Shown: positions 27,410 to 46,395 of the stretch, one piece after another
Position numbering within the stretch: the stretch's first letter is position 1
Layout of the letters: each line of letters opens with the position of its first letter
From: Clostridium sp. CAG:138
Lineage (GTDB): Bacteria > Verrucomicrobiota > Kiritimatiellia > RFP12 > UBA1067
Length of the DNA stretch: 46,395 nt
Direction: 5' to 3'
NCBI GenBank assembly: GCA_963626295.1
Contig: CAVFWS010000003.1
Location: 1 to 46,395 of the forward strand
Notes under the pieces: generated by a model
What the model was told of the DNA's origin: nothing
Seen by the model: the letters and a program-made list of their open reading frames with translations, nothing else
The model's database searches: none
Translations under genes and position numbers: made by a program

Positions 27410-27450
27410 GCAGCGTAGTTATTAGCCGCGAGCAGGTGTTTTGGTGCGGA
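27410..27450 (-). promoter_or_regulatory. conserved bipartite motif, copy B
   Basis: GCAGCGTAGTTATTAGCCG-N14-GGTGCGGA, beginning 10 nt after the terminase stop codon and 103 nt from copy A. Confidence 0.55.
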
Positions 27451-27459
27451 CAATTTTCA

Positions 27460-29751
27460 TCATCCGCGAAGTTTTCTCAATTCCGAGAGTTTCATCTTTG
27501 GCTTCGATTCCGTCGACTTCTTGACGACCGTGTCCGTCCCCGCGAGGACGCATCCGGCCATCGAAGCGCCGACCGCACACCCGACGAGTCCGTCCCACCA
27601 GTGGTTGTCCGTTCCCTCCGGGCGCATCTTCCATTCCTCGACGCGCCGTCCGCGTCCCTCGGTCTTGACGCGGTACTCCGCAGTCAAGTGTTCGGCGAAA
27701 AGCATGTGCGTTTCGCTCGAACGCCCCCAGAGGGAGAGCGATCCACGGTCACCCATCGTCTCGAGGAGACGGCTGGCGACAAAACTCTTCCAGTAGTTCG
27801 TGTCGAAGACGACGTGCCGCACCGCCCGCTTCCCGCGGATGTTCGGCATCCGCCAGTTGTGGCCGACCCGGTCGCCCACAACCTTGTGGTACTCGCTCAT
27901 CGGCTTCGAGGAAGCGCCGATGTACTTGCCGTGCGAGGGGATGATGATGTTCGAGTAGGCGGACTCGCGGCAGAACTGGTAGACCACGTCGGTCGACTGA
28001 CCCCAGTTCGCGTCCACGAGACACTTCTCGATCTTCATCGCCGCTCCGTCGTCGCGGGTGAACTCGCGGGCGAGGTAATCGTCCGTGAGGGCCTTGAGTC
28101 CCGAGTAGAGGCATCCCTCCAAGCCGGAGCGAGGGAACTTCGACTGCAGCGTCGGATTCGCCTCCGAGAGCGTGAAGTACCGCCGCCTCTGGTCCGGCCA
28201 TGCGCCGTAGTCGATCACGTAACCCGTGAAGTCGTCGTCCCACGCGCACACGACGTAAAAGAGGAGAGTCTTCTGCACGTCCACGAACATCGTGATGTGG
28301 TTCGCCGAGACGGGAATCGTCCGCTGGGTGTGTCCGTTGATCTTGTTGACGATGCCGTCAACCGTCAGTTGCTCGTCCGTTCCCAAGTCCTCCGGCAGGG
28401 GTTCGTTCTGATACTCCGCCCAGAACGCCGATTCGTCGGTGAGCTTCAAGTTCATCGCATGCTGGACGGCGGAGATCTCGTCGTAGTTGTGCCGGTCGGG
28501 CCACGACACGACCGCACCCTCGTCCATCTCGAACTGATGCTCCCGGTAGAACTCGGTCGCTTTCTCGAACGTTCCGTTCTCCCGGAGTTCGTCGGCGCGT
28601 AGATCGGCGTACTTCTCCCACAGCTCCTCGTTCTTGGGGAACTGATAGATCATCTTGCATCGCTCCCCGTTCCACTCCGGATGCTTCGACTTGTCGAGGA
28701 TCTGCTCGGCCATGTCGCCGGGGCGGATGACCGTGCAGGGCATGATGCCCGCGATCTTCTTCCCCGGCCCCGCGAGGCCAAGGATGTCGCCCGCGAGGAC
28801 ACGGACGCGCTTTCTCGTCTGTTCGACGGAATCCGCCGATTCCGAGGTCTGCGGGTCGTCGATGACGACGAACTCGGGGCGGATCGTCCGCCCGTCCGGC
28901 TTCTTGTACTTCATGCCGCGAATGCGGCCCGTGATGCCCGCTACGCGGACGATCACTCCGGACGAGAGCGCGTCCCTGATCGTCGGAAGGACAATCTCGT
29001 TCGCGGTCCAAGTTATGCGCGTCCGCTCGCCCTTGTAGAGCTGACCGGCGCAGCGGTTCGCGATTCCCTCCAGCTTCGAGATCGGATAGGCGACCTCGGG
29101 GAAGTCCGCCGCTATGTGTTCGTTCACCTCGAACTCGGTCTTGATCGAATCGAGCATTTCCAAGGCGGCGGATTCGGAAGCGCCGATCAGCACGACGAAC
29201 TCGCGGTGACCGTAGAGCATCGCCCAGATCGCGGCGGTCTCGGTCAATGAAGACTTGCCGCTGCCACGACTCATGGCGAGTGCGAAAAGACCGCCCTCGA
29301 GGACTGACTTCTGTATCTTCGAGATGGCGCGGAGGTGGTCATCCGACCACTTGAGCTGGTAGACCTCGGGAAAGTACGTCTCGCAGAAGAGCTTGAAATC
29401 GTCCTTGCAGGACGCCTTGCGCTCCGGATTCTCGACTTCGGGCAGTTCGCCGATGTCGCGGCCTTCGAGCGAACGTTCGAGGGAACGCTTCGCCGCATCG
29501 GCCCTGATGTCATCGTAGTCCATCGCCGAGTTGTCCTCGGCCGGCGTGTTCTTCCGGTCGACGAGCCACGCGACGTACCGGTAGAAGCTGATGTAGTGGC
29601 TGTCCTCGGCGGACGCGATGCGGTAGCCCGCGTTCGTGAAGTGGCGGTAGACCTGCGCGGGAGAGACGACCGTCCCGAAGTCCGTCGAGTTGATGAGCTT
29701 CACCACCTCGGCCGGCTTCAGCTTCGAGGGCGTGATCGAATTAGTCGCCAT
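27460..29751 (-). CDS. terminase large subunit, lambda GpA-like, with an extra N-terminal domain
   Basis: 763 aa with Walker A MSRGSGKSS, FVVIDDPQT and a C-terminal nuclease region. The overall blocks resemble Terminase_GpA. Confidence 0.85.
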   Translation of the reverse strand: MATNSITPSKLKPAEVVKLINSTDFGTVVSPAQVYRHFTNAGYRIASAEDSHYISFYRYVAWLVDRKNTPAEDNSAMDYDDIRADAAKRSLERSLEGRDIGELPEVENPERKASCKDDFKLFCETYFPEVYQLKWSDDHLRAISKIQKSVLEGGLFALAMSRGSGKSSLTETAAIWAMLYGHREFVVLIGASESAALEMLDSIKTEFEVNEHIAADFPEVAYPISKLEGIANRCAGQLYKGERTRITWTANEIVLPTIRDALSSGVIVRVAGITGRIRGMKYKKPDGRTIRPEFVVIDDPQTSESADSVEQTRKRVRVLAGDILGLAGPGKKIAGIMPCTVIRPGDMAEQILDKSKHPEWNGERCKMIYQFPKNEELWEKYADLRADELRENGTFEKATEFYREHQFEMDEGAVVSWPDRHNYDEISAVQHAMNLKLTDESAFWAEYQNEPLPEDLGTDEQLTVDGIVNKINGHTQRTIPVSANHITMFVDVQKTLLFYVVCAWDDDFTGYVIDYGAWPDQRRRYFTLSEANPTLQSKFPRSGLEGCLYSGLKALTDDYLAREFTRDDGAAMKIEKCLVDANWGQSTDVVYQFCRESAYSNIIIPSHGKYIGASSKPMSEYHKVVGDRVGHNWRMPNIRGKRAVRHVVFDTNYWKSFVASRLLETMGDRGSLSLWGRSSETHMLFAEHLTAEYRVKTEGRGRRVEEWKMRPEGTDNHWWDGLVGCAVGASMAGCVLAGTDTVVKKSTESKPKMKLSELRKLRG

Positions 29752-30751: not shown

Positions 30752-30793
30752 TTCAAGTTGTTCCTTTCCGTTGCCGCCCGCTGGCGGCGAATT

Positions 30794-33458: not shown

Positions 33459-33469
33459 TGCTTTCCTTT

Positions 33470-33501
33470 CTTGAACGGCCCTTGAACGGGCCTTGAAACG
33501 G
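33470..33501 (-). repeat. three direct repeats CTTGAACGG / CTTGAACGG / CTTGAAACGG with 11-bp phasing
   Basis: Starts at 33470, 33481 and 33492, about 12-40 nt upstream of the ParB-MTase ATG (33458) and touching its RBS. Confidence 0.7.
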
Positions 33502-33827: not shown

Positions 33828-33868
33828 GCAGCGTAGTTATTAGCCGTGCAGGGGTGTTTTGGTGCAGA
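33828..33868 (-). promoter_or_regulatory. conserved bipartite motif, copy C
   Basis: GCAGCGTAGTTATTAGCCG-N14-GGTGCAGA, about 370 nt upstream of the ParB-MTase ATG. Confidence 0.55.
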
Positions 33869-34107
33869 CTATTTTTCTGAAGATTCTTCACTTGCCCCGT
33901 TGACTTGCAGGACAAGTTGTGGCATCATATCCCGCTGTCGGCCACCCGTCTCCTTTCCTGCCGATGCGCATGCCTATTACAGGGCGCAAGCCCCGTTGCG
34001 CACCGACAGTGTTTGCGCCGGGTGGCCGACTTCTTTTCCCCTCGCGCACGCTCGCGCGATCATACACGCACAAAACCGCCCAAAAAGCGTGTTGCACACG
34101 ACTGCCA

Positions 34108-34319: not shown

Positions 34320-34320
34320 A

Positions 34321-34371
34321 AAAGACAACAAAAAAGGCGTCCGCAAGAGCATTCATACTCCTGCGGACGCC
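34321..34371 (-). terminator. rho-independent terminator after the replication module
   Basis: GGCGTCCGCA (34336-34345) and TGCGGACGCC (34362-34371), followed on the minus strand by TTTTTTGTTGTCTTT. It lies 26 nt after the prim-pol stop. Confidence 0.7.
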
Positions 34372-34397
34372 TTGCGTCCCTGTCACGAGTCACCGCA

Positions 34398-36668
34398 TCA
34401 TGGAAGCACATAGAACACGCCTCCGCGCTGTCCGTACTCCTTCTTGAGTCGACAGCTCTCGACGAGCGTATCCGTGATGCGCTTGAACGACTCCCGGTCA
34501 ATGTGCGAATTGCGGAGAAGCCGTCCGTGTGAGATGCGACCGCCGTGCGCCTTCACGCCGCGCATGAGCTTCATCGAGAGCGATTCGTACTCCGTGTCGG
34601 CGACGAACAGTCCCGCCATGAAGAGCATACGCTTCGTCATGTGTTCGACAAGTTTCCACGCCCAGTCGACGGCATCGACATCCATCATGGGATCGAGCGG
34701 ATTCTTGCTGATCGCGTAGAGCGCGGCGAGCTTCGACACCTTCTCCCCCGCACGCGCCCAGAGGGCGTTAGCGGAATCGCACTCGAGTTCCGATGCGCGG
34801 GCATACTCCTTGTCCGCGAGGGCGAACACCTCGTCGAGCCGCTTCGTCGCCTCGGTCGTTTCGGGCAACACCATCGGCTGCGGATATTCCTTGAGAAGGT
34901 TCTGCTCGTGTCCCATGCGCACCATGTCCCGGACAGTCTGGAGGATCGAACTCGGAAACGCCTCCTCGTGGGGCGTGCCCGCCATGCCGCGCTCCGCCGC
35001 CTCGAGGACGATGCACCGCGCCAGAAGACCGTTCTCCATCGTGCGCTCCGTGAGCGACTGGTAGAAGAACTTGGGTGTCGCCGTGCCGAACATCGTGAGA
35101 TGAGGCTGCGGGATGTACGAGCCGGACTGAGGCTGTCCGCGCTGAATCGCCTTCTTGCGCATGACGTGGGTGGTCTTCGATTCCGAGTAGAGCTTCAACA
35201 GCATCGAGCTGATCTGCTCCGCCCGCGCATCCTTCAGCTTCACCGTGTTGAAGAGATAGTCCACCTCGTCCACCTGGTAGAGCATGGACGGCGAAATGCA
35301 GAGCGAATCCTCCAAGCCCTCGCCCGAAGCGAAGGTGTCGCCGAGTTCGCCCAGCATCGACATCTGCGCCGCGAGGTCGATGTTCACGGAGCGAGGATGC
35401 TCCTTGCCCGTTCCGGACTTCGCCAAGGCGAGAAGATAGAGGTTGAACCGACTTCCCCGCTTGTCCTTGTAGCGGCGTCCCGTCAGATGCGAGAGCATCG
35501 CCATCGCTCCGGCGAACGCGAGCGCCTTGTTCGGATAGTAGGCCGTCCGCAAGGTATAGCCCATCAGATCCGACACGAATCCCGGCACGTTGAAATACTC
35601 CTCCGGAATGACGCCCGGATCCTCGTACTCGAACGCCGCCTCGTGTGCATCGTCCGCATCCTCCGGCTGGACGACGACCGCTTCGGATCCTTTCTGTGCG
35701 ACGCCCGTCCGCGCCACTTGCTGCGCGAGACCCATGATGCCCGCACACTCGGCCATCGGCACCTCGTCGCCCGTCCCGTATCCGCGTTCCAGCAATGTAC
35801 GCGCCGCCGCCGTGAAGTCGCCACCGTGTTCAAGGAGCGCATACACCTGAAACTTGTTGTACCCCTTGGCCTCGAAGGGAGCGGCGTTCGTCGAGAAGAC
35901 ACACAGAATCTCCCCGTTGAAGGTCGCCGAGTTGCCGTCCCCGGACTTGCCGGGACGCTGCCACAGTTCGTTTCCGTCCGGCTTCGTGCCGAGGAACTTC
36001 CAGCCGTGCGCCGTCAGAACGGGCCGGATGTCGCCACGTGCGCAGAAATCGTCGCCCGGTTTCACCAGAAAGGCCGAATCCTGCCCCTGTGTGGCCTCCG
36101 TGGGGGCGATTGCGTCCACACACTCGTTCATCGCCTCCGCCGCCGACACGAGGGCTTTACGCTCGTCTGTCGAAAGGACGGACAGTTTCTCAAACCGTCC
36201 CTGCAAAAGACAATAACCCTCGGTGGGGGCACAGAGAAAAAGTCCGCCCTCGCCTCGGGTTTCTATAAGCGTCGTCTTCTTTCCCTCGCGCATTCCCTGC
36301 GCGAGCTTCCGGTTTCCTTCTACGGGATCTTGTGTCCGATAGAGGACATGGTATCCGCCGGATGGTGTGCGTTCGACGACGAGCCGGTCGAAGAGTGACT
36401 GCTCCAACGTCGCCGCCCACGCCTCGAAGCATTCGCCGTGCGCGTCGAAGTCGATGCACTCCAGGTTTCCGGACACCGCGCCCGCCACGATGCACACGCC
36501 GTCCTGCGCGTTCGCGAACCACGCCCCGACCTCGTACTCGGTCGGAAGCCGTTTCGCCCACGTCTTCCACGATCCGACGGACGGACGCTTCCTCTGCCGC
36601 GCCGCCGGGAGGACGGAGAGTCCCGCCGAAAGGTACGACTTCGCCAGTTCGACCGTCACAGTAGCCAT
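34398..36668 (-). CDS. bifunctional primase-polymerase (prim-pol) N-terminal domain fused to a DUF3987/D5-like helicase-type C-terminal domain
   Basis: IDFDAHGE and TPSGGYHVLYR are typical prim-pol blocks. The large C-terminal region resembles phage/plasmid primase-helicases. 756 aa. Confidence 0.75.
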   Translation of the reverse strand: MATVTVELAKSYLSAGLSVLPAARQRKRPSVGSWKTWAKRLPTEYEVGAWFANAQDGVCIVAGAVSGNLECIDFDAHGECFEAWAATLEQSLFDRLVVERTPSGGYHVLYRTQDPVEGNRKLAQGMREGKKTTLIETRGEGGLFLCAPTEGYCLLQGRFEKLSVLSTDERKALVSAAEAMNECVDAIAPTEATQGQDSAFLVKPGDDFCARGDIRPVLTAHGWKFLGTKPDGNELWQRPGKSGDGNSATFNGEILCVFSTNAAPFEAKGYNKFQVYALLEHGGDFTAAARTLLERGYGTGDEVPMAECAGIMGLAQQVARTGVAQKGSEAVVVQPEDADDAHEAAFEYEDPGVIPEEYFNVPGFVSDLMGYTLRTAYYPNKALAFAGAMAMLSHLTGRRYKDKRGSRFNLYLLALAKSGTGKEHPRSVNIDLAAQMSMLGELGDTFASGEGLEDSLCISPSMLYQVDEVDYLFNTVKLKDARAEQISSMLLKLYSESKTTHVMRKKAIQRGQPQSGSYIPQPHLTMFGTATPKFFYQSLTERTMENGLLARCIVLEAAERGMAGTPHEEAFPSSILQTVRDMVRMGHEQNLLKEYPQPMVLPETTEATKRLDEVFALADKEYARASELECDSANALWARAGEKVSKLAALYAISKNPLDPMMDVDAVDWAWKLVEHMTKRMLFMAGLFVADTEYESLSMKLMRGVKAHGGRISHGRLLRNSHIDRESFKRITDTLVESCRLKKEYGQRGGVFYVLP

Positions 36669-36682
36669 TTCCGTCCTTTCCG

Positions 36683-36940
36683 TCAGCGGATGGTGAACCA
36701 GCCGCCGATTCCGAATTGTTCAAGTTCCTTGAGGAGTTCAAGCTCCTCGTTCATGCGGACGCGCCCGTCCGCATCCATCTTCGGCTTCCAGTGCTTCGGA
36801 AGCCCGCTCGACCGCACCGTGTGCGAGAGCCGCGCACCCGCGCCGCGCCCGCCGAGGCAGTTGAGGCAGTGGCTTCCCCTGCGGAAGCCGTTCTCGTGTT
36901 CGGGGCCGATCTCCATGCGGCGTTTCTTCAGATCGCTCAC
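36683..36940 (-). CDS. hypothetical protein (85 aa from GTG; 77 aa if from ATG 36916)
   Basis: High-GC3 frame ending ...MNEELELLKELEQFGIGGWFTIR, with a GTGA overlap on the upstream small ORF. Confidence 0.45.
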   Translation of the reverse strand: MSDLKKRRMEIGPEHENGFRRGSHCLNCLGGRGAGARLSHTVRSSGLPKHWKPKMDADGRVRMNEELELLKELEQFGIGGWFTIR

Positions 36941-37089
36941 TTCATCACCCCCGCCACGCGGCAGAACGCGACCGCCCACGCGACCGTGAAGTTGAGAACC
37001 GCCATCGAAAGCCCCCAGTAGGCCATCCGCCTCCAGTAGTCGAGTTCGCGCTTCACCCGGCAGCAGCCGCGTCCAATCATGCATTCCAT
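36937..37089 (-). CDS. small membrane protein (50 aa), below the track cut-off
   Basis: MECMIGRGCCRVKRELDYWRRMAYWGLSMAVLNFTVAWAVAFCRVAGVMK. GAAAGGAAAC RBS and high GC3. Confidence 0.5.
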   Translation of the reverse strand: MECMIGRGCCRVKRELDYWRRMAYWGLSMAVLNFTVAWAVAFCRVAGVMK

Positions 37090-37092
37090 CGG

Positions 37093-37467
37093 TCAGTTTC
37101 CTTTCTTCGTGTGGTTCAAGAGATTCGTCCTGTTCCGGTCGAGGGCGTCGTAGTACTTGCCCGAGACGGAAATCGAATAGTTTGTCGGATTCGTGTAGGC
37201 GACGCTGAACGTCATCGGCCAGCAACCGGCCTCGCGCATCTCCTCCATCACCGCCGAGAGCCGCAGCGACAGCGCCTCGTGGTGTACGGGCTGCGCGGCT
37301 GGCGCCGCCGCGTCGTTCGCGCAGCCGGAAAAGCTCGCGATCCCCCAGAGAATCGCGAAGAGGATCGCGGCGTAGATCGCGTAGACACGCGCCCACCACC
37401 AGATCCGAAACAAAAGCTCGTAGAATTTGTCCCTGTTCAACCTTTCGTCAAAACGGAAGATCCTCAT
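37093..37467 (-). CDS. putative lipoprotein (124 aa)
   Basis: The hydrophobic segment AIYAAILFAILWGIASFSGC has a lipobox-like SFSGC. It is embedded in the replication module. Confidence 0.5.
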   Translation of the reverse strand: MRIFRFDERLNRDKFYELLFRIWWWARVYAIYAAILFAILWGIASFSGCANDAAAPAAQPVHHEALSLRLSAVMEEMREAGCWPMTFSVAYTNPTNYSISVSGKYYDALDRNRTNLLNHTKKGN

Positions 37468-39160
37468 CGTCCATCGACTCGGACTGTGCGTTCACCGCCG
37501 CCTTCGCCTCGCCGAGTTCGTATCCGATCACGTTCGGATACTTCTCGCCCGTGACCGTGCGCACCTTGATCTTCTTCACCTCCTTGAGCATCCCCATGAA
37601 GGCGTACTCGCACACGTCCTCCGCCGTGACCGGCATCGGGCACTCCGGAAGCGCGTGTTCCTTCCACCATTTCTCGAACTTCCTCCGGGCGTACCCCGTG
37701 TGTTCGGGACACAGCCACTCGGAAATCGAATGGAGGAGGTCGAGCCGGTAGGTGACGCGCACGGTGTGCGGCGCTTCCGGCGGTGCGCCCCGCTTCTGCC
37801 AGACGAAGTAGTCCGTATCCCTCACCTCGTGTTCTTCGGTGATCACCTCTCCGGACAAAACGCCGAGGTTCGAGGCGGTCGCGTCGAACTTCGGCTCCGG
37901 ATCCTTCTGCGGATACTCGTAGCCGCACTGTGGACAGCGCGGCATCGCAATCGGAATCAAGGCCCGGCACTGCGGACACACCTTCGCGAGCGGCCCGGAC
38001 TGTCCGGACTTCTCGCGCTCGGACGGCGGCTTCAGCGCATCCAGCGGCCCATGCCGCTCGATGTTGCGACCGTAATCGAGGATGAGGCAGTCGGTCTTCC
38101 CCGTTTCGGGCGAGAGCCGCGTGCCGCGCCCGCACATCTGCATGAGAAGTCCCGGCGACATCGTAGGACGCAGAAGGCACACTGTGTCGATTCCCGGCGC
38201 ATCGAATCCTGTCGTGAGACATTCGACGTTCGCCACGAACTTGAGCGGCTTCTTCCCGTTGCCGAAAAGGTCGGCGTCCACCACCTCGCCCTTGAAGCGG
38301 GCAAGGATCTCGGCGCGTTCGGAGGACGGCGTGTCGCCCGTCACGACCGCGCACTCCTCGCCGGTGTAGCCGTGGATCAGTTCGGCGACCCGATGCGCGT
38401 GTGCGACCGAGGTGCAGAAGATGATCACGGACTTACGATCCTTCGTCAGTTGCGCGATCTCGTGACACGCCGAAGTGACGATGGCCTCGTCACCCATCGC
38501 CCGGTCGATGTCCTCCTGCACGAACTCGCCGCCACGGATGTGGAGGTGGTCGAGATCGGCAAGAGCCCGCCCCGACTTCGAGACGAGCTTCGAGAGGAAG
38601 CCACGGTCGATCATTTCCTTCAATCCGATCTCATAGCACACCTCGTTCAGGATGTTCTCCGGCTTGCAGATGAGTCCGCCTTTCATCCGCCACGGGGTCG
38701 CCGTGAGCCCCACCACGCGGATGTTCGGATTGACGGCCTTGAGACCTTCGAGCAAGGTGCGGTACATCCCGTCGCCGTCCGGCGGCACCATGTGTACTTC
38801 GTCGATGATCACGACGTCGAACCGCCCGAAGTCCGCCGCCTTGTTGTAGATCGACTGGATGCCGCCGACGATCACCGACTGCGACATGTCGTGCCGCCCC
38901 AGTCCGGCGGAGTAGAGCCCGAGCGGAATGTCGGGGCAGATCGCCTTGATCTTCCCCGCATTCTGCTCCAGAAGTTCCTTCACATGAGCGATGCAGAGGA
39001 CGCGCCCACCCCAGTTCGTGACGGCATCCGAGGCGATCTGTCCGATCACCCAGCTCTTGCCGCTTCCCGTCGGCATCACGACGCAGGGATTCGTGTCCTT
39101 CTCGCGGAGATGCTTCCACACCGCGTTCACGGCATCGGCCTGGTAGTATCTCAGTCCCAT
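37448..39160 (-). CDS. SF2 DEAD/DEAH-box helicase with a zinc-ribbon insert
   Basis: Motifs PTGSGKS (I), DEVH (II), TATP (III) and QMCGRGTR (VI), plus CPQC..CPQC. Confidence 0.85.
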   Translation of the reverse strand: MGLRYYQADAVNAVWKHLREKDTNPCVVMPTGSGKSWVIGQIASDAVTNWGGRVLCIAHVKELLEQNAGKIKAICPDIPLGLYSAGLGRHDMSQSVIVGGIQSIYNKAADFGRFDVVIIDEVHMVPPDGDGMYRTLLEGLKAVNPNIRVVGLTATPWRMKGGLICKPENILNEVCYEIGLKEMIDRGFLSKLVSKSGRALADLDHLHIRGGEFVQEDIDRAMGDEAIVTSACHEIAQLTKDRKSVIIFCTSVAHAHRVAELIHGYTGEECAVVTGDTPSSERAEILARFKGEVVDADLFGNGKKPLKFVANVECLTTGFDAPGIDTVCLLRPTMSPGLLMQMCGRGTRLSPETGKTDCLILDYGRNIERHGPLDALKPPSEREKSGQSGPLAKVCPQCRALIPIAMPRCPQCGYEYPQKDPEPKFDATASNLGVLSGEVITEEHEVRDTDYFVWQKRGAPPEAPHTVRVTYRLDLLHSISEWLCPEHTGYARRKFEKWWKEHALPECPMPVTAEDVCEYAFMGMLKEVKKIKVRTVTGEKYPNVIGYELGEAKAAVNAQSESMDDEDLPF

Positions 39161-39164
39161 GAAA

Positions 39165-39443
39165 TCACTTCCTCACTTCGATGCCCTTGAGCCGGAGCCC
39201 GATGGCGATCCGACCCTTGGCGGCCTCAATCTCCTCCTCGGACATCGAGAGCGTCTTCGAGATCGTCTTGTTCTCGAGTCCCTGCATGAGCAGGAACGCG
39301 ACGAGGAAGAGCTTGTCGTCCTCGACCGTGTGCATGTACTCGCGGACGATCTCCCGCTTGCGCTCGATACGTTTGCGCCACTCCGGGATGAACTCCTCCT
39401 CGGGTTCCCTGTTCCTCTCCGCGTTGTGTTCTTCCTCTGCCAT
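39165..39443 (-). CDS. small acidic protein with a C-terminal sigma-region-4/LuxR-like HTH
   Basis: LFLVAFLLMQGLENKTISKTLSMSEEEIEAAKGRIAIGLR. 92 aa. Confidence 0.45.
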   Translation of the reverse strand: MAEEEHNAERNREPEEEFIPEWRKRIERKREIVREYMHTVEDDKLFLVAFLLMQGLENKTISKTLSMSEEEIEAAKGRIAIGLRLKGIEVRK

Positions 39444-39449
39444 TTGAAA

Positions 39450-39791
39450 TTACCTCTTCTCGATTGTGACGTGGACCATGCCGTCCGGCGGCACGGCGTC
39501 CATCATGTGCAGTCCCAGATCCTTGACGAGCGAATCGTCCTCGTAGACCCCGGCGTGCGTGAGCGAATCCAAGAGACACTTCAGACAGTTATCCAAGTCT
39601 CGTCTGCGGTTGTCCGGCGGATAGAGCTCGATGCGCACCTTCACGGGGACGGTGAACTTCTCGAAAAGCCCGCCGAGCCGGGACACGGTCTTCAGCCGGT
39701 ACTGCCGGCCCTCGCGGCTGATGAGCACACGGGGGCCGACGTGCCGATAGTACCGGTTCAGGCTCGGAGGCCACGGAAGCTCGAAGCTCAC
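39450..39791 (-). CDS. rusA: RusA-family Holliday junction resolvase
   Basis: VSFELPWPPSLNRYYRH...RRRDLDNCLKCLLDSLTHAGVYEDDSLV. GTG start with a GTGA overlap at 39788-39791. Confidence 0.75.
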   Translation of the reverse strand: MSFELPWPPSLNRYYRHVGPRVLISREGRQYRLKTVSRLGGLFEKFTVPVKVRIELYPPDNRRRDLDNCLKCLLDSLTHAGVYEDDSLVKDLGLHMMDAVPPDGMVHVTIEKR

Positions 39792-40264
39792 CGGCTCCAC
39801 GGGGCCTTTCCTTGCGTAGCCGTGGTCTGTGCGGCCTGGACGGGCGTCGCGGCCTGCGGGGCCGTCTGGGCGGCTTCCTTCGCCTTGTAGCCGCCGACCT
39901 CGTTCGTGTAGGTGTCGTCGTCGCGCTTCACGCGCTTCACCACGACCAAGAACGGGATGTTGTGCAGTTCCGAGCTGTCGCCGGGATTCATGACGTTCAC
40001 GGCGCGGCAGATCGAGGAGAGTTCGCGGCGGGCGATCTCGACCGCCTTGACGTTCTGGTTCGCGAGGTTGAGGCGCGACCACACCCTGCGGCCCTGGTGG
40101 TCGCCGGAGATGATCTCGATGGTGAGTTCGAGATACGATCCCGTCCCGTTCTTCGTCGGCTTCATCGCGGAGTCCGTGATGACGGCCTCGTAGGTTCCGG
40201 CGGGGATCGCCTCGAAGGTTTCGAGCGGCTGCACTTCGGCAGCGTTGAAGTTGAGCTGTGCCAT
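39788..40264 (-). CDS. DUF669-like phage ssDNA-binding protein
   Basis: IPAGTYEAVITDSAMKPTKNGTGSYLELTIEIISGDHQGRRVWSRLNL fits my recollection of the DUF669 pattern. It sits next to a Sak4-like ATPase, as is usual. Confidence 0.6.
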   Translation of the reverse strand: MAQLNFNAAEVQPLETFEAIPAGTYEAVITDSAMKPTKNGTGSYLELTIEIISGDHQGRRVWSRLNLANQNVKAVEIARRELSSICRAVNVMNPGDSSELHNIPFLVVVKRVKRDDDTYTNEVGGYKAKEAAQTAPQAATPVQAAQTTATQGKAPWSR

Positions 40265-40267
40265 GAC

Positions 40268-40537
40268 TTATCTGACCTTTCTTGCTTTGTTGTTGGTGTT
40301 GCCTTTGCGGCGGTTGACTGTGCGGGCGCGGACTGCGCCACGGACAAGGGTTCTCGGGCGGATCGGGCGGGGGACTTTCACAGCCGCGTTCTCCGCCGCC
40401 GGACAGGCCTCGTGCGTGAACCGGCACTCGCCGGTCTTCTCGTCGAAGGTGACGATGGCCGTCTCTCCCGCCTTGATCGTCTCGCCGCAGCGGTCGCACA
40501 CGACCGCCGCAGTGAGGGTGACGCGCTGCCTCTTCAT
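40268..40537 (-). CDS. small Cys-containing protein with a basic tail
   Basis: VVCDRCGE...ECRFTHEAC, then an Arg/Lys-rich C-terminus. ATGA overlap with the upstream stop. Confidence 0.45.
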   Translation of the reverse strand: MKRQRVTLTAAVVCDRCGETIKAGETAIVTFDEKTGECRFTHEACPAAENAAVKVPRPIRPRTLVRGAVRARTVNRRKGNTNNKARKVR

Positions 40538-41280
40538 TTGGCTCCTCCCGTCTTCAGCGCCTCGACGAAGGCGGACCAGGAGAGCGGAAGTTCCGTCGGA
40601 AGCCCGTAGCGGTTCTTCGCGATGCAGGCCGGGGAGCCGTTGGTGCGGAGCATCCGCTCACCGCCGTCGGCCCCCACGGGCGCGGCCTTGCCCGTCGTCG
40701 CATCGACGCGCATCCGGCGCGAGGCGAAGAGGACGGCATCGACCCACTCGCAGACGAGCGAGCACGCCTTCTTGTGAAGCCGGGGCGTGTAGCGGTCGTA
40801 GGCGGCGTGTTCCGGATCCTCGAAACGCTCCACGGCGGCGTGCGCGATGAGGATCACCGCCATCCCGCGCTTCGAGCGGATTTCATTGAGGATCGAGATC
40901 ATCTGCCGCCAGTAGGTGAGCGCGAGGACATAGCCCTTGCCGTACCCGCCGTCGGCCTTTTCAATGCTCTTCACACCGTAGTCGTTGCACACGCGATCCC
41001 AGATGAGACGCTCCGCCCAGTCGAGGGAGTCGATCACGACCGTGCCGTAGGAATGCTCCTCGTCGCGGACGGCCTTGAGCTGCAGGACGAGGTCGTCGAA
41101 GCTCGTGCAGAGCGGGAACTTGGACGTGTCGATTTCCGAAAGACCGTCCTCGGTCTGGATGAAGATCGGGTCGGGCGCAAGCGAGGCGAACGAGGATTTT
41201 CCCACGCCCTCGCTGCCGTAAATCATGATCCTCGGCGGCTGGGTTTCGCGGCCCTTGGTGACAGTGTTGATAAGCGACAT
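40534..41280 (-). CDS. Sak4-like / AAA_24 RecA-superfamily ATPase (recombination)
   Basis: Start at MSLINTV after GAAAGGAAAG. Walker A is YGSEGVGKSS, Walker B-like is VVIDSL, and the size is ~250 aa. Confidence 0.7.
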   Translation of the reverse strand: MSLINTVTKGRETQPPRIMIYGSEGVGKSSFASLAPDPIFIQTEDGLSEIDTSKFPLCTSFDDLVLQLKAVRDEEHSYGTVVIDSLDWAERLIWDRVCNDYGVKSIEKADGGYGKGYVLALTYWRQMISILNEIRSKRGMAVILIAHAAVERFEDPEHAAYDRYTPRLHKKACSLVCEWVDAVLFASRRMRVDATTGKAAPVGADGGERMLRTNGSPACIAKNRYGLPTELPLSWSAFVEALKTGGAK

Positions 41281-41315
41281 ATTCTTTCCTTTCTGTGTTT
41301 GCGTGAGTTGGAGGG

Positions 41316-42161
41316 TTAGCGGCTGAAGTCGAGGATGCGGATCTCCTCGTAGCCGGTCGGCCACGTGTTCTGGCAGCGGCATTCGCGGAGGAGCGACAGG
41401 GCGCGTTCGTTCTCGGCCTTGGCATCGTCGAGCGCATCGGTGGAGAGTTGCCACACGCCGACGCGATACGGGGCCTTCTTCTCGACCGCGATGATGTAGA
41501 CCGGGAATTCCTCACCGGAAACGATGCGCATCACCTCGCGGTAGAAGGCAAGCTGGTGGATGTACCCGTAGCGGCGGGCGTCCGACTCGAAGAAGTCGAT
41601 GGTCTCGCACGTCTTCAAGTCGATGATCGCGCCCTCGCGTCCCGTGAGCGGATTCTTGAAGTTCGGATTGAAGTAGTCGATCCGGATTTGCACGGGTTCG
41701 CCGTTGTAGGTCGTCCTGACCGTACCCTCGGCCCAGCCATCGGAGAGAAGCTCGCCCGCGACCGGGTGCAGCCAGACGGAACTCTGGAGCTTCGCCATGA
41801 AGCCGAAGTCGGTCGTGGAGATCGGCTCCAGCGTCTGCGCGGCGGCCCACTCCCGGTAGACCTTCGTGAGCTTCCCGAACGGCTCGCCCGTCTTGGGATT
41901 CACCGGCCCATCGGTCACGACGAACTCCTTGTCGAATGCGGCGCGGCCCTCGCACACGAGCGAATGGACGGCGCGGCCTGTCTTGTACGCGGCGGAGTCC
42001 TGCGGAGGAATCTCGCCCGTCATCTTCTGGTGGTAGGTGCGCGGACACTTTCGGAAGTCCCCGAGCAGATGGCTCGAGAGGAACTTGCCCTGCCTCGCAT
42101 CCTCGTGGTATTGTTCCGCGTCGATGTCGGCGAAGAACGGATAGTCGGCTCTTGTCTTCAT
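41316..42161 (-). CDS. PD-(D/E)XK nuclease (RecB/Cas4-like exonuclease)
   Basis: IIDLKTC and YIHQLAFY (QxxxY) blocks. Start at MKTRADY (AAGGAC RBS). The track's start is 42188. Confidence 0.65.
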   Translation of the reverse strand: MKTRADYPFFADIDAEQYHEDARQGKFLSSHLLGDFRKCPRTYHQKMTGEIPPQDSAAYKTGRAVHSLVCEGRAAFDKEFVVTDGPVNPKTGEPFGKLTKVYREWAAAQTLEPISTTDFGFMAKLQSSVWLHPVAGELLSDGWAEGTVRTTYNGEPVQIRIDYFNPNFKNPLTGREGAIIDLKTCETIDFFESDARRYGYIHQLAFYREVMRIVSGEEFPVYIIAVEKKAPYRVGVWQLSTDALDDAKAENERALSLLRECRCQNTWPTGYEEIRILDFSR

Positions 42162-42203
42162 GATTGTTAGTCCTTTTTGAGTTGTCATAGGAGGTTGCCC
42201 CCC

Positions 42204-42244
42204 GCGGCGTAGTTATTAGCCGCAGGGGGTCGAAGTGGTGCAGA
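42204..42244 (-). promoter_or_regulatory. conserved bipartite motif, copy D
   Basis: GCGGCGTAGTTATTAGCCG-N14-GGTGCAGA. The GGTGCAGA box abuts the sigma gene stop codon (42245), and the motif lies 43 nt upstream of the nuclease ATG. Confidence 0.55.
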
Positions 42245-42832
42245 TTATTTTTTGAAGTCGTGGATTTTCTGCAGACGCTTCGCGATTTTCGGCACGAGGC
42301 AGCGGATCACGCGCCAATGGGTGACACCCATCTTCTCCGCCGCACCGCGCAGGGTCTCGCCGTCCATCAGCAACTGGCAGAGCTGCATCGACAAGGGGTC
42401 GAGACCGCGCAGGGCTTCCGCCACGTCATTGTGCAGGTCGACATCGTCCACGCCGCCGTCACGTTCGTCGGGGACGGTGTCGATGCGCGATTCCTCGCAA
42501 TCCACCTCATCGTCGCCGCCGAAGCCGTCCTGGCAGACGGGTTCGTCGAGAACGCAGATGAAGCGCACGCGCTTTTCGCGGCGCTTGTTGCGCAGGAATT
42601 CCTTGGCGGCATTGTCCACGGCAGTGTGGAGGAACGTCTCGAGGGACGCCTTGGCTGCCTCATCGTAGGCATAACGCGCCTTGACGGCGGCCAGACTGAT
42701 GTGCTGCTTGAGATCGTCCTCGTCGGCGAAGGAGAACCCGACGTTGATGGACGTCTGACGGGTCTTCGTCTCGATGTACCTCATGGTGGTGGCAGGGATG
42801 AGCTCTGCGACACGATTGTTAGTGGTCTTCAT
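42245..42832 (-). CDS. phage-encoded sigma-70 family (ECF-like) sigma factor
   Basis: Region 2-like: DDLKQHISLAAVKARYAYD...ETFLHTAVDNAAKEFLRNKRREKR. Region 4-like: LDPLSMQLCQLLMDGETLRGAAEKMGVTHWRVIRCLVPKIAKRL. Confidence 0.7.
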   Translation of the reverse strand: MKTTNNRVAELIPATTMRYIETKTRQTSINVGFSFADEDDLKQHISLAAVKARYAYDEAAKASLETFLHTAVDNAAKEFLRNKRREKRVRFICVLDEPVCQDGFGGDDEVDCEESRIDTVPDERDGGVDDVDLHNDVAEALRGLDPLSMQLCQLLMDGETLRGAAEKMGVTHWRVIRCLVPKIAKRLQKIHDFKK

Positions 42833-43034
42833 GGTTCGTTGTTCCTTTTTGCGCCCCAGGCCGTTGCCGACCTGTGAGCTGTTTTTCGAGCATCGAACCG
42901 CCTCTGTCCGCCAGAGCCAGAAGACCGTTCCGACTCCTCAAGACCCAAACCACCCGGCTTGGTGGGGCGATTCGCCTCTTGCCGGGTTCGTCAATCTCGT
43001 TTGCGATCTTGATTCGCCCGACCACACACGGGCG

Positions 43035-43065
43035 AAGTTCCACACGAAGACCTTAAGTGGAACTT
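43035..43065. promoter_or_regulatory. palindromic operator-like site AAGTTCCAC-N13-GTGGAACTT (proximal)
   Basis: Perfect 9-bp inverted arms at 43035-43043 and 43057-43065, about 200 nt upstream of the sigma ATG. Confidence 0.55.
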
Positions 43066-43099
43066 GGAAAGTGCAACAGGACATTCAGGAAAAATGAAA

Positions 43100-43138
43100 A
43101 TGGCCGTTTCCGCGTCTTTTACACACGGAAACAGCCAT
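43100..43138 (-). other. 13-bp imperfect inverted repeat with a 13-nt spacer; T-rich tail on the minus strand (attenuator/terminator candidate)
   Basis: ATGGCCGTTTCCG ... CGGAAACAGCCAT with one mismatch. The minus strand continues TTTCATTTTTCC. Confidence 0.35.
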
Positions 43139-43172
43139 TATCTCGAATGGAAAAATCTGAAATTTATTTTGG

Positions 43173-43223
43173 AAGTTCCACTCGTTTTCCTTAAGTGGAA
43201 CTTTGACGCCTTAAATGGAACTT
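43173..43223. promoter_or_regulatory. palindromic operator-like site AAGTTCCAC-N13-GTGGAACTT (distal) plus an extra half-site ATGGAACTT
   Basis: Arms at 43173-43181 and 43195-43203, with the extra half-site at 43215-43223. The spacer length matches the proximal site. Confidence 0.55.
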
Positions 43224-43240
43224 TCGGGAATGGTGGAGAA

Positions 43241-43273
43241 ACAAAAAACGCAGCCGGTCAACCCGACTGCGTT
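43241..43273 (-). terminator. rho-independent terminator of the low-GC cassette
   Basis: AACGCAGCCGG / CCGACTGCGTT arms (one G-U pair) with a 5-nt loop, followed on the minus strand by TTTTTTGTTT. It lies 24 nt after the stop at 43297. Confidence 0.7.
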
Positions 43274-43296
43274 CTCATCTGATCTCGTATCCGAGC

Positions 43297-44331
43297 TTAC
43301 TTCGCGGATTTGTGTCTTGCCATTTCGGCCAAATACAATCGATAGAAATTGCCATAGAGGGTTTGCGCGTCCTGTCCAGCCGAAAACGGCTTCTCCTCAA
43401 CAATCTTCGCAAAGATGAAGAAGTAATCGTATACAGTGACGACGTTGAACCAGAACTGAGCACACGATTCATCATCGCCCCAATGCCACTTGGCGTTGAG
43501 ATATCGAATCATTGTGTTTTTGGGGATGTTCAATTCACGCCCAATCTCCGCAACATTCTTAGTCTCGCGGATGGCTTTCTCCCGTTCTTCCCATGTTGGA
43601 AGACTCATAATCGAGAAGAACCGATCCTTCAAATACTCCGCGATCTTCCGCTCGCGCGCCAATGTGTCGGCGCGCTTTCCTCGCTTCTTCGGAACAACGG
43701 ACTCGGAAAGACGATTCGTGAACTCGTCGAGGACAAACGAAACCGTACCATCATCCGCGAACCGCACTACTTGGTCGAAGGTGTAGATGCGCCGCCGGTA
43801 CTGATCATCGAATTGCGTCAAATCGCACTCAAGCGATCCGACAAGCAAAAGAAAATTCTGATTCTGAAGCAACTTGGGAAGGGATTCGAGATCTGCTTTG
43901 CCGCACCGCGTCATGATGACGATTTCACGTTCCTGCGTCTCGGCTATGTCGCTGTGTCCCAGCCGCCACACTTTGCCGTCGCCAATTTTCTCAACACCCT
44001 CGCACTCAAGACGCTCACAGACAATAGCCGCAAAGCGGTCGGGGTCGTAGACCAATGAAAAGACACGTTCAGCGTCGACATCGATTACCTCACCCGTCAG
44101 CTCGCAGGTGTACGCCCACTGCGGTTTCTCGGCGGTTTCATCACGAACATAAGGCGTCGGCATGAAGTCGCAATCATGACAATCATCGCAGTCTATCGTG
44201 TGAAGTCGTTCGCCCCAAATGAGAACGCCGGACAACACCAGAGGATTTTTCGATCCTCCGGGAAGAGTGCAGACCGTCCAATAGGGATTCTCGTTACGAA
44301 GCTGCTGCGTCAGTATTCGGGTCGTTTTCAT
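43297..44331 (-). CDS. hypothetical protein with a Cys/His/Asp cluster and a C-terminal HTH (cassette gene 3)
   Basis: 344 aa with HTIDCDDCHDCDF and NVAEIGRELNIPKNTMIRYL. Lower GC than the phage backbone. Overlaps the upstream gene by 38 nt. Confidence 0.6.
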   Translation of the reverse strand: MKTTRILTQQLRNENPYWTVCTLPGGSKNPLVLSGVLIWGERLHTIDCDDCHDCDFMPTPYVRDETAEKPQWAYTCELTGEVIDVDAERVFSLVYDPDRFAAIVCERLECEGVEKIGDGKVWRLGHSDIAETQEREIVIMTRCGKADLESLPKLLQNQNFLLLVGSLECDLTQFDDQYRRRIYTFDQVVRFADDGTVSFVLDEFTNRLSESVVPKKRGKRADTLARERKIAEYLKDRFFSIMSLPTWEEREKAIRETKNVAEIGRELNIPKNTMIRYLNAKWHWGDDESCAQFWFNVVTVYDYFFIFAKIVEEKPFSAGQDAQTLYGNFYRLYLAEMARHKSAK

Positions 44332-45502
44332 CGGGCGACTTTGTGATGCCGTACTTGCGCATGTATTCCTTGAATCCCTTTTGCACCTTCTTTGGCGCGG
44401 ACATCAATCCTCCGATGGATGTCTCGGAAATTCTGAATGTTCTCGGCACGTCGTTCTTCTTCGCCGAATCATAAGTGATGCGGATCGTCACGCGCTGGAC
44501 GGTCGTGGTATCACGATTGAGTAGATCGTCGCTCAACTCCTCCTTGATCGTCGCCTGCAGATCGCGCTCCGCCTCAAAATACGACCGGCGGCGCTTCTTG
44601 GTGTTGTCGAGAAGGATGTCCAGTCCAATTACGGTCGCCGTCTTGATGCCCGCATCAGGCAAGGGCGGCAATTTCGACTTGTTCTTGAACTGGCTGATGG
44701 TGTATCTGACTTCGTCAATGCGCTTGTAGCCGTCCGCACCGAAAATGGCATCGGCAAGCACGGACGAGAGTTCCCGGCATCCTCTTGGATTGCTTGTGTA
44801 GAGGATGCTCATCCGGTAGGTGTCGTAATCAAACGAGAGCACAACCTTGAATGCCTTCAAGTTGTCAGTCGGCTTGAAGTCCTGTGACTCTTCGCTCCAG
44901 AATTCGTCTGCCGACTTGTGGTCGGTCAGTTTGAAGACAATGTTCTCCTTGTCACCGACGGTATAGCACTCGCTCTTGCAATGCCGTCCGCGATATTCGC
45001 GGTGCGAGATCGACTTGACGATGGCTTTCTCGAGTTGGGTCTTTCGCTCTTCGATGAGACCGCGCTGCGGATCCTGCTCGAACTGGAGATCGAAGCTCTT
45101 CCATTCGCCGGGGTTGAAGTTGTTGATGAGCGCACGCCCACGAAGCCGCCCCCATTGAACCGGTTCGAGATTGAGCCAGCTCCAGGTCGCCATCTGAGCT
45201 GCATTCCATTCGTCGAATCCATCCGGCGTCTCCTTGCGCATCTCGTAGAGCGTGGAGAGGATTACGGGGATGTTCTTGTTCTCACGCCCCACCGGCGCAA
45301 TCTCCTCCAGCGTCAGACCAACCTCATCCTGGATCTCGTCCGGCAGTTTCGCCAACGCATCGCACAACGGCTTGATGTTGCGTTTGCTGGACTTCTTCCA
45401 TTCCTCGTCCAAACCCTCGATATGAAGCCGCTCGAACAATTGCTCGAGCAGTTTCTGGTCGATCCTTTTGACGATCTCGTTTACTTCATGATGTTCTGCC
45501 AT
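44294..45502 (-). CDS. hypothetical protein, no recognisable motifs (cassette gene 2)
   Basis: 402 aa with a GGAGAA RBS and lower GC. I could find no Walker or nuclease motifs. Confidence 0.6.
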   Translation of the reverse strand: MAEHHEVNEIVKRIDQKLLEQLFERLHIEGLDEEWKKSSKRNIKPLCDALAKLPDEIQDEVGLTLEEIAPVGRENKNIPVILSTLYEMRKETPDGFDEWNAAQMATWSWLNLEPVQWGRLRGRALINNFNPGEWKSFDLQFEQDPQRGLIEERKTQLEKAIVKSISHREYRGRHCKSECYTVGDKENIVFKLTDHKSADEFWSEESQDFKPTDNLKAFKVVLSFDYDTYRMSILYTSNPRGCRELSSVLADAIFGADGYKRIDEVRYTISQFKNKSKLPPLPDAGIKTATVIGLDILLDNTKKRRRSYFEAERDLQATIKEELSDDLLNRDTTTVQRVTIRITYDSAKKNDVPRTFRISETSIGGLMSAPKKVQKGFKEYMRKYGITKSPDENDPNTDAAAS

Positions 45503-45537
45503 AATTTAAGTTCTCCGTTTTACAGATTGAGTGCTAT

Positions 45538-46311
45538 CTACAATGGGTACGCACGATAATTCGCTATTCCTTTGCGCACGTTTCCCTTGCCGACAGTTGT
45601 ATTGTCGATACGCTTCTTCAAGAAGGTGCAAAGCTCGCCAAATCGAGATGAAGACACGGCGACAGCCTTCGTGCCAAACTGTTTCCTAATTGCCCGACTG
45701 AGATTGACGGCTACGACTTTTGGATTAAGCGAATAAGCACCTGCCAGTTGCTTGTATTGGTCGATCAGATAGAGGACATACGCCCTCTGCGCGGCATTGC
45801 GCTGGATTGCATCGTCGGGAATCGGATCGCGTTGCGGATGCATGAAAACATTGACCGTCTGCTGGGCGTTTCCGGTTGCCTCGTTGTGAACGGAATGGTT
45901 GTAGACGGTCTTCTTTACCGTTGTCTTTCTGACGACAGCATTGTCCATGTAAATCTTCGTCAGTCTGCCATCGATAGGATCAATGTCCAGACGACCAAGA
46001 GACTCATGATTACGCTTCATCTCGCGTAATCTTGCCACGGTGTATCCATTGCGTTTATCGTCGATCAACGTATGATGATCATGGCACAGCAATATGAGGT
46101 TGTCACAATCGTTCAGGTGCTCATCCGGCAAGTTTGGGTTGTGTCGTGCGGAACCCTTTGCAACGCCCTCGATGTGCGCTATCTCGCCCATGACGGTGTT
46201 CGTTGTCTCGTCCACGATCATGCGATTGCATCCATCAAATGCGCACATGTTTCGCGACTTTGCGAACAATGCCTTGATAGTACGTTCGGGTATGGGCTTC
46301 CGTCTTGCCAT
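45538..46311 (-). CDS. HNH endonuclease domain protein with an unknown C-terminal domain (cassette gene 1)
   Basis: CAFDGC...GEIAHIEG...NLPDEHLNDCDNLILLCHDHHTLID is a CxxC ... H ... N ... CxxHH HNH signature. Start at MARRKP (ATG 46311). The track's start at 46323 is TTG. Confidence 0.7.
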   Translation of the reverse strand: MARRKPIPERTIKALFAKSRNMCAFDGCNRMIVDETTNTVMGEIAHIEGVAKGSARHNPNLPDEHLNDCDNLILLCHDHHTLIDDKRNGYTVARLREMKRNHESLGRLDIDPIDGRLTKIYMDNAVVRKTTVKKTVYNHSVHNEATGNAQQTVNVFMHPQRDPIPDDAIQRNAAQRAYVLYLIDQYKQLAGAYSLNPKVVAVNLSRAIRKQFGTKAVAVSSSRFGELCTFLKKRIDNTTVGKGNVRKGIANYRAYPL

Positions 46312-46327
46312 CTGTCGCCTCAATTCT

Positions 46328-46395
46328 TCAAGAATTGGTTTCGCTCTTGCGCACCTCGGCGATCTCCATGCGGCGCGTCAGCTCGCCCTCGACCT
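46328..46395 (-). CDS. 3' end of an upstream high-GC ORF (partial)
   Basis: The reading frame ...VEGELTRRMEIAEVRKSETNS ends at TGA (46330-46328). Only 22 codons are visible. Confidence 0.35.
   Translation of the reverse strand, partial: VEGELTRRMEIAEVRKSETNS

Follow-up and report, generated by a model that had tools for sequence, protein, structure and literature searches.

Phage-encoded sigma factors that act on private promoters are well established, as exemplified by gp55 of T4, gp28 and gp34 of SPO1, gp36 of phiEco32 and gp47 of phage 7-11 (PMC9429907, PMC8948821, PMC4331800). The promoter consensus of phage 7-11 is bipartite (GTAAtg-N16-aCTA), and in the case of 7-11 and phiEco32 the positions of the promoters, but not their sequences, are kept between related phages (PMC8948821, PMC4331800). 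A conserved stem-loop beside the sigma gene of 7-11 was proposed to stabilize the mRNA (PMC8948821). Here, we analyzed a 46,395-nt stretch of DNA from Clostridium sp. CAG:138 (contig CAVFWS010000003.1; the whole stretch is hereafter named the window), which carries a gene for a small sigma-70-family protein and four copies of a two-box, promoter-like element at the start of gene blocks. The sequence evidence makes it probable that a dedicated phage sigma factor and four phage-specific promoters serve about 42 kb of this genome.

The closest precedent is the phiEco32/7-11 system, which also combines a small phage protein of the sigma-70 family with a low-copy, highly conserved promoter class. 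Those two phages are lytic enterobacterial podoviruses with experimentally mapped promoters and independently acquired sigma factors, whereas the system described here belongs to temperate lambda-like Kiritimatiellia prophages, and involves homologous, diverged sigma factors and predicted promoters. It also differs in that swaps affect the -35-like box alone and leave the -10-like core intact, and in that a hairpin overlaps a promoter. The bacterial extracytoplasmic function (ECF, group 4) sigma factors are similar in size (~190 aa), in having sigma2 and sigma4 only, in their bipartite promoters with rigid spacing, and in the autoregulation seen in two relatives (L057/58). Unlike in bacterial ECF systems, no gene for an anti-sigma factor is seen beside the sigma gene, the -10-like box is A/T-rich (ATAAC) and the window promoter lacks the AAC and CGT signatures that ECF promoters usually carry.

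As with T4 gp55 and SPO1 gp28/gp34, a phage sigma factor would redirect the host polymerase to middle or late genes (PMC9429907). T4 and SPO1 are large and lytic, whereas here a single two-domain sigma factor would serve all non-early genes of a temperate phage. T4 gp55 has a sigma2-like part only, and requires gp33 and the sliding clamp. The temperate lambda-like layout with control elements at block boundaries recalls N/nut and Q/qut of lambda and put of HK022, and the box and hairpin of one element copy (copy D) look like boxA/boxB of lambda. Unlike in lambda and HK022, only one of the four copies has a significant hairpin, copy C follows a terminator, and no N- or Q-like protein was identified in the window. 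RinA/ArpU-type proteins are single regulators of the packaging/morphogenesis operon of temperate phages of Gram-positive bacteria, with a site upstream of the terminase genes (PMC3152322). A single phage regulator would likewise switch on the late operon here, but the element also heads the replication block, in contrast to the one late promoter of RinA/ArpU, and sigma2 and sigma4 domains are clearly present in the protein.

Phage sigma factors with bipartite promoters are known already, and the locus is a good further example that brings no new mechanism. It stands out by its host group and temperate lambda-like genome, by a series of homologous sigma factors with exchange of the -35-like box only, and by the promoter-overlapping hairpin. 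Transcription control is almost unstudied in phages of Kiritimatiellia/Verrucomicrobiota, whose hosts are uncultured gut and rumen bacteria. The locus suggests that one sigma gene and four promoters govern ~42 kb, while lambda-like temperate phages normally use antiterminators or activators.

The sigma-like protein and the four-copy element

A first-pass annotation made from the DNA letters had described the product of ORF 42245-42832 as an ECF-sized protein with segments resembling sigma regions 2 and 4. Pfam, a family profile, structure modelling and Foldseek agreed on this description. The protein consists of a sigma2 part (~14-95), an acidic disordered linker (~97-125) and a sigma4 helix-turn-helix (~127-194), and it scored as a sigma factor in both Pfam (Sigma70_r2, PF04542; 25.2 bits) and PHROGs (sigma factor, E 2e-9). 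An exhaustive HMMER search recovered a family of ~190-aa proteins in which the DLxQ and ETFLH motifs are conserved. Sigma70_r2 was matched by 41 of 41 aligned family members (best E 5e-12) and Sigma70_r4_2 by six of the 41. The family profile aligned with the solved ECF factor SigE over residues 24-185 (E 4e-11), and both domains matched the solved SigE, SigH, SigW and FliA (E 1e-7 to 4e-11), with region 4 aligned to 1l0o_C (query 88-179).

The AlphaFold2 (AF2) model of the window protein (predicted local distance difference test, pLDDT, 85.6) showed two helical domains separated by the disordered acidic linker, with a pLDDT above 90 for the C-terminal helices (127-194). All of the top 50 Foldseek matches in the PDB were sigma factors (sigma32, SigA, SigB, SigH and SigE; probability 0.97-1.00); as the two domains are free to orient independently of each other, the template modeling scores were low (~0.3). 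As far as sequence and fold can tell, the protein belongs to a divergent clade of ECF-sized sigma factors. Only four close homologues were found among 5.8 billion proteins, all on short contigs, and in all four the element lies directly 3' of the sigma stop codon. A tblastn search with the sigma protein gave no match in INPHARED phages, and nothing was found in viral and genome contigs with the alignment of close-relative sigma proteins (A3).

The gene and the four element copies, all on the minus strand, are placed as follows:

42245..42832 (-): gene for the predicted sigma-70-family, ECF-sized sigma factor, 195 aa
42204..42253 (-): element D, with A-tract at 42248-42253, GCACCA at 42236-42241, 17-nt spacer and TAATAA(C) at 42213-42218
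33828..33878 (-): element C, with GCACCA at 33860-33865 and TAATAA at 33837-33842, heading the ParB-N6 methylase/S-adenosylmethionine (SAM) synthetase/terminase block
27410..27460 (-): element B, with GCACCA at 27442-27447 and TAATAA at 27419-27424, beginning at the large-terminase stop codon
27307..27357 (-): element A, with GCACCA at 27339-27344 and TAATAA at 27316-27321, in tandem, 103 nt after B

The element was recognized by a 19-mer, CGGCTAATAACTACGC[C/T]GC, present at 27307-27325, 27410-27428, 33828-33846 and 42204-42222; 0.01 copies were expected from dinucleotide shuffles. A distal box, TC[T/C]GCACCA, stands at a constant distance in each copy with an A-rich tract 5' of it. The invariance of box and spacing claimed in the first-pass annotation holds, as GCACCA-N17-TAATAAC is perfect in four of four copies. 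No further copy was found in the window at up to 3 mismatches, and the four are gene-sense and stand at block starts, which agrees with the proposed confinement of the motif to block boundaries. A sigma-54-type reading of TGCAC was ruled out by the spacing and the second box.

Copy D indeed lies directly 3' of the TAA stop of ORF 42245-42832 (box TCTGCACC at 42237-42244), its A-tract overlapping the final codons of the sigma gene. From its end, 43 nt lead to the conserved ATG (42161) of a DUF3799/exonuclease VIII-like gene, the first of the recombination/replication block; the ATG at 42188 in the list of open reading frames is unconserved in orthologues. Transcription from element D would start at ~42204-42208. 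The other three copies head the methylation/packaging and structural blocks, as had been noted. Element C is located downstream of a terminator with an 18-bp stem, and element A ~220 nt upstream of the C5 methylase/portal/capsid block, C5 methylase being the first gene after B and A.

GC-rich leaders precede the next clear gene 3' of A (27091-27310, ~220 nt) and of C (33458-33830, ~370 nt). Each leader opens with a stem-loop a few bases from the inferred start, and part of the C leader (GCCCCACGT..CTCCG) is kept in the relative L062.

Concerted change of the sigma factor and the -35-like box

Relatives were reached through helicase searches and exact-protein look-ups, and the distant sigma homologues together with the helicase-anchored loci gave nine lineages. 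These lineages yielded 26 element copies that align without gaps as an A-tract(..GTCT), a hexamer, N17 and nRATAA(C). The upstream tract of the aligned copies reads GAAAAA..GTCT, and the spacer sequences are variable. All lineages have in common the upstream A-tract and a -10-like core that reads ATAA, in most cases with C after it. The -35-like hexamer is lineage-specific, yet identical in every copy of one genome, as listed here for the window and the relatives (L numbers):

window: GCACCA
L002/3: GCTCAA
L005: GTTCCA
L029: GCTTCA
L030/31: GCTCCA
L062/55/74: CTCGGT
L056/37: GTGACA
L075: ATGACA
L057/58: GGGACT
L059/60: nnCTAC

The rule of a hexamer-N17-nRATAAC after an A-tract could aid operon annotation in related prophages. 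The junctions used are those after the sigma gene, between PrimPol and the ParB-methylase, and between TerL and the C5 methylase. In L062, copies are located after the sigma gene (4151), in the Prim-Pol/ParB-methylase gap (12446) and directly after TerL (18260); the copy at 12446 is the orthologue of element C with a swapped box, and that at 18260 the orthologue of B. L056, L057 and L059 carry three copies each at comparable positions. Every examined relative with the sigma gene has the post-sigma element at the corresponding position, with the exception of L040-42, where the post-sigma DNA contains no recognisable ATAAC element; the element is unclear in L061, where only a GGAATAAAC-like sequence was seen. 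A de novo motif-pair search in L061, L040-42, L039, L043 and L063 gave output too noisy for use. An exact scan of viral contigs with the 19-mer gave no match. In metagenome contigs, the two-box pattern gave 22 matches, which were discarded as chance or coding matches without flanking features. L057 and L058 carry their own motif copy 80 nt upstream of the sigma gene, an arrangement that points to the positive autoregulation typical of ECF sigma factors.

The closest relative of the window is L062, with 90% identity in TerL, 87% in the ParB-methylase, 86% in the helicase and 84% in the exonuclease, yet the two sigma proteins share only 40%. L062 has CTCGGT in place of GCACCA in all three of its copies, the box being replaced within otherwise alignable intergenic DNA. 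The sigma gene was the least conserved gene in four of four lineage comparisons (33-42% identity, against 60-90% for most neighbours). Among 14 sigma/box pairs, sigma proteins with the same box were at least 65% identical and those with different boxes at most 66%. Identity of sigma4 (the C-terminal 62 residues) was correlated with the Hamming distance between boxes (Mantel rho -0.57, p 0.0006). Two blind look-ups agreed with the prediction of box from sigma: the L074 sigma is 68% identical to that of L062 and both have CTCGGT, and the L075 sigma is 55% identical to that of L056 with a box (ATGACA) one base off GTGACA.

A constant geometry, sense orientation, location ahead of operons and change in concert with the sigma protein would be expected of a dedicated sigma/promoter system. 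They support the promoter class read by the phage sigma factor that the first-pass annotation had put forward, and we infer that the protein reads the motif. In this model, the ORF 42245-42832 protein would join the host core RNA polymerase, and the holoenzyme would initiate at four promoters composed of the A-tract, GCACCA, N17 and TAATAAC. Sigma region 4 would contact the lineage-specific -35-like hexamer and region 2 the ATAA(C) core common to the family, with a possible contact of the host alpha subunit to the A-tract. Transcription of the recombination/replication genes would depend on promoter D, that of the ParB-methylase, SAM synthetase and terminase genes on promoter C, and that of the C5 methylase, portal, capsid and tail genes on B and A in tandem. 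Once made from its upstream control region, the sigma factor would thereby switch on ~42 kb of the 46-kb genome.

Several observations weigh against this model. The Pfam region 2 score of the window protein is marginal (25.2 bits against a cut-off of 24), the protein by itself has no Pfam region 4 match, and it does not pass the NCBIfam sigma70-ECF model TIGR02937 (33.7 bits, E 2.5e-8, residues 37-177, cut-off 42.9); its relatives score 36.8-40.4 bits. The protein at the sigma position in L059/60 has a weak region 4 match and no region 2 match. In addition, conservation around the -10-like box extends over an unusually long block (16-19 nt). The sigma gene and the post-sigma copy are physically linked, and the correlation is therefore partly co-inheritance; what carries the argument is that the distant copies change as well. 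Finally, the box could be read instead by g92, another small protein that evolves fast and gives a weak helix-turn-helix match:

39165-39443: g92, 92 aa, GerE/LuxR-type helix-turn-helix (E 1.3e-3, below the Pfam threshold)

This protein is the second most diverged between lineages (41-61% identity; 47% in L062 and 41% in L056), and may either serve as an additional regulator or read the distal box in place of the sigma protein. In the latter case, the host housekeeping sigma factor would read ATAA(C), a phage class II-type activator (like Mu Mor/C), such as g92, would bind the distal box, and the sigma-like protein would have another role. The constancy of the -10-like core and A-tract across lineages is as expected for host-read parts, and the weak GerE-type match and the divergence of g92 would fit an activator. 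We nevertheless consider such an activator unlikely. It is the sigma protein that is most diverged in every comparison and whose region 4 similarity tracks the box, and the sigma gene heads the regulon in every lineage, with L057 having its own motif upstream of it. Moreover, the -10-like box has no T at -7 of TATAAT, and the match of g92 falls short of the Pfam threshold.

If the phage sigma factor does read the element, the relatives, which agree in geometry and -10-like core and differ in their -35-like hexamers and in the helices of sigma region 4, would form a natural series for how sigma region 4 reads DNA and a source of orthogonal sigma/promoter pairs. At least eight different sigma/-35 pairs were found with a common -10-like core, the other genes being mostly 60-90% identical. 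A more speculative proposal, which we make tentatively, is that sigma and -35-like box form an exchangeable specificity cassette, maybe under diversifying selection, and that the post-sigma hairpin couples the 3' end of the sigma transcript to the first promoter. If true, diversifying selection would keep co-resident or superinfecting relatives from firing each other's lytic genes, as a transcriptional counterpart of heteroimmunity and a natural set of orthogonal pairs, and the hairpin coupling would concern stability or read-through of the sigma transcript.

A hairpin at the post-sigma copy

The first-pass annotation had noted a base change in copy D that would strengthen an alternative hairpin, and had considered an RNA-structure role possible for the motif. 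The change, the sole difference of copy D (T to C on the sense strand), does turn a G.U pair into G-C, and the flanks complete a stem of 11 bp:

42198..42229 (-): hairpin, at the post-sigma copy only, with an 11-bp GC-rich stem (42219-42229/42198-42208) and the -10-like box in the 10-nt loop

Hairpins were scored by single-sequence folding of equal 46-nt segments against shuffles. Copy D folded at -25.2 kcal/mol (z -4.88), with none of 200 shuffles as good. The hairpin noted for copy D is real. Window copies C, B and A have no significant hairpin (z -1.50, -0.97 and +0.64). The same division was found in relatives. Post-sigma copies gave z-scores of -4.9 in the window, -4.5 in L005, -5.0 in L029, -2.8 in L031, -3.7 in L062, -4.4 in L056 and -4.8 in L057, while the remaining copies of L062 (-0.55 and +0.8) and L057 (+0.45 and -0.5) were no better than shuffles. 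The other two L056 copies (-3.0 and -2.6) fold unlike the L056 post-sigma hairpin.

The hairpin is kept with differing stem sequences in L005, L029, L031, L062, L056 and L057, and by inspection in L074 and L075. Its stems vary in sequence and register (GCGGC/GCCGC, GCGCGGC/GTCGCGC, TGGCA/TGCCA, CCTCG/CGAGG and CTCTCACG/CGTGGGAG) and include G.U pairs that are valid on the sense strand only; loops measure 8-13 nt. RNAalifold recovered only the outer CCCCC/GGGGG pairs of the post-sigma elements because the inner stems shift register between lineages. The 5' arm of the hairpin is the promoter spacer, so that it could form only in RNA reading through from the sigma gene. These features suggest that the sigma/exonuclease junction hairpin is an added, selected second signal, separate from the four-copy motif, and being confined to the post-sigma copy it does not explain that motif. 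Tentatively, we take it for a 3' stem-loop that would protect or insulate the sigma transcript, the nearest precedent being the stem-loop beside the 7-11 sigma gene (PMC8948821); alternatively, it could insulate the downstream genes from early read-through.

Two other roles of the hairpin were rejected. An intrinsic terminator is excluded in that no U-tract follows the post-sigma hairpin in any lineage (CAACCTCC, GTGAAGAC or ACCCCAGC follows instead), whereas the genuine terminators of the window have T-runs. The hairpin promoters of the N4 virion RNA polymerase have a short stem and a 3-nt loop, and are read by a phage single-subunit RNA polymerase. Here, the loop measures 8-13 nt, only one of the four copies has the hairpin, and no RNA polymerase gene was found among the annotated window genes.

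Side observations were made around the hairpin. At 42185-42197, and in the same place in L001-L003, L056 and L074, CAACCTCC (or GCAGCCTCC) follows the hairpin and is anti-Shine-Dalgarno-like; in transcripts started at element D, its pairing partner could be the G-run of the 3' arm or a ribosome-binding site. In L059 (7423-7460), the post-'sigma' element has no hairpin and overlaps the end of the upstream gene, the exonuclease ATG follows TGATAA after ~13 nt, and the mRNA would be nearly leaderless.

The hairpin bears on the possibility that the element works as RNA, either in antitermination of the lambda nut (boxA/boxB) or HK022 put type or as an RNase processing site. The strong hairpins of copy D and its orthologues, with AATAAC in the loop, sense-only G.U pairs and pairing maintained while stem sequences differ between lineages, are consistent with such a role. 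We regard it as very unlikely for the element as a whole, as neither window copies A, B and C nor the copies of L062 and L057 other than the post-sigma one outscore shuffles (z +0.8 to -1.5), and the differing folds of the other L056 copies and the missing stem in L059 leave no common structure. The distal box is replaced wholesale without compensating changes, copy C stands downstream, not upstream, of a strong terminator, and an Rfam search finds nothing.

Least probable of all is another DNA function of the repeats, in partition (as parS of the ParB-domain protein), in replication (as iterons) or in packaging. In its favour, the gene for a ParB-N domain protein lies just 3' of copy C and copies B/A adjoin a terminase gene, but parS sites are palindromes whereas the element is asymmetric, always co-oriented with transcription, of -35/-10 geometry and spread over three different functional blocks, and a separate iteron/AT-rich origin-like region is present at 33900-34330.

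Control region and organization of the phage genome

The intergenic region upstream of the sigma gene contains the following features:

42833..43296 (-): control region, with two terminators, palindromic units and a relic of an L057-type element
43244-43276 and 43099-43139: terminators upstream of the sigma gene

At 43030-43235 (-), two palindromic units of 31-35 nt (AAGTTCCAC..N11-13..GTGGAACTT) and a half site were observed, each after a strong terminator. The units are probably operators of an immunity-type switch, and the same ones are present in L062, along with the cassette of HNH, 402-aa and 344-aa proteins described below. Just upstream of the sigma gene (~42877-42905, minus strand), cGGACa-N17-GAAAAAC resembles the autoregulatory element GGGACT-N17-GAAAAAC of L057 (6315), and a more decayed version of this element is found in L062 (~3500-3530). 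By its sequence, it looks like the remnant of a different specificity type, which suggests that sigma cassettes may be exchanged by recombination.

The window represents a temperate, lambda-like siphovirus, of a prophage type of Kiritimatiellia/Verrucomicrobiota metagenome-assembled genomes (MAGs). Its genes are essentially all on the minus strand, read leftward. In transcription order, the features are:

43297-46323: low-GC cassette encoding HNH, 402-aa and 344-aa proteins, first in transcription order
between this cassette and the sigma gene: two terminators and a repeat-rich intergenic stretch
42245..42832 (-), then 42204..42253 (-): predicted sigma gene, followed by element D
41316..42161 (-): PD-(D/E)XK exonuclease (DUF3799, exonuclease VIII-like), first gene 3' of element D
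after the exonuclease: recombination/replication genes for Sak4/AAA_24, DUF669, RusA, helicase and Prim-Pol
34334..34373 (-): strong intrinsic terminator (18-bp stem and T-run), 3' of Prim-Pol and ~470 nt upstream of element C
33900-34330: iterons and AT-rich region, between the Prim-Pol terminator and element C
then: element C, followed by ParB-N6 methylase, SAM synthetase and gpA-type large terminase
then: elements B and A, 103 nt apart, followed by C5 methylase, lambda-type portal and protease-capsid fusion
25724-27091: C5 DNA methylase, first gene after copies B/A, with the portal and capsid genes next
end of the structural block: decoration protein, tail genes and NrdD

We regard the phage as new. 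INPHARED contains no close match to it; a megablast search with 27000-46395 returned one methyltransferase gene only. The relatives found by helicase-based searches come from MAGs of Kiritimatiellia/Verrucomicrobiota from the human gut and rumen. Some are embedded in contigs of 89-160 kb and are therefore prophages.

The NrdD gene (2-1477), encoding an anaerobic ribonucleotide reductase, is cut by the window end. Together with the SAM synthetase (30794-31810) and the two DNA methylases (the ParB-N6 fusion at 32109-33458 and the C5 methylase at 25724-27091), it is consistent with an anaerobic gut host and with anti-restriction self-methylation. The region at 33900-34330 is probably the replication origin. 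It contains GCGAAC/GTTCGC iterons and a purine/pyrimidine-rich, AT-rich inverted repeat (34133-34211), and L059 has the same layout at 14200-14400 with different iterons (GCTGACA). An Rfam match to snoR125 in this region was dismissed as spurious (24.7 bits against a gathering score of 100).

The cassette at 43297-46323 has a GC content of 49-53%, compared with 62% elsewhere. Its 402-aa and 344-aa proteins have no family match, and the 344-aa protein ends with a C-terminal helix-turn-helix-like stretch (NVAEIGRELNIPKNTMIRYL). An apparent inverted copy of the 402/344-aa pair in L005/L031 shares only ~20% identity and was set aside as a different module. The HNH protein matches the PADLOC candidate PDC-M68A and HNH effectors of the type found in the cyclic-oligonucleotide-based anti-phage signaling system (CBASS; E 1e-29). 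The cassette, which is also present in L062 with 64-80% identity, is possibly a defence or immunity module.

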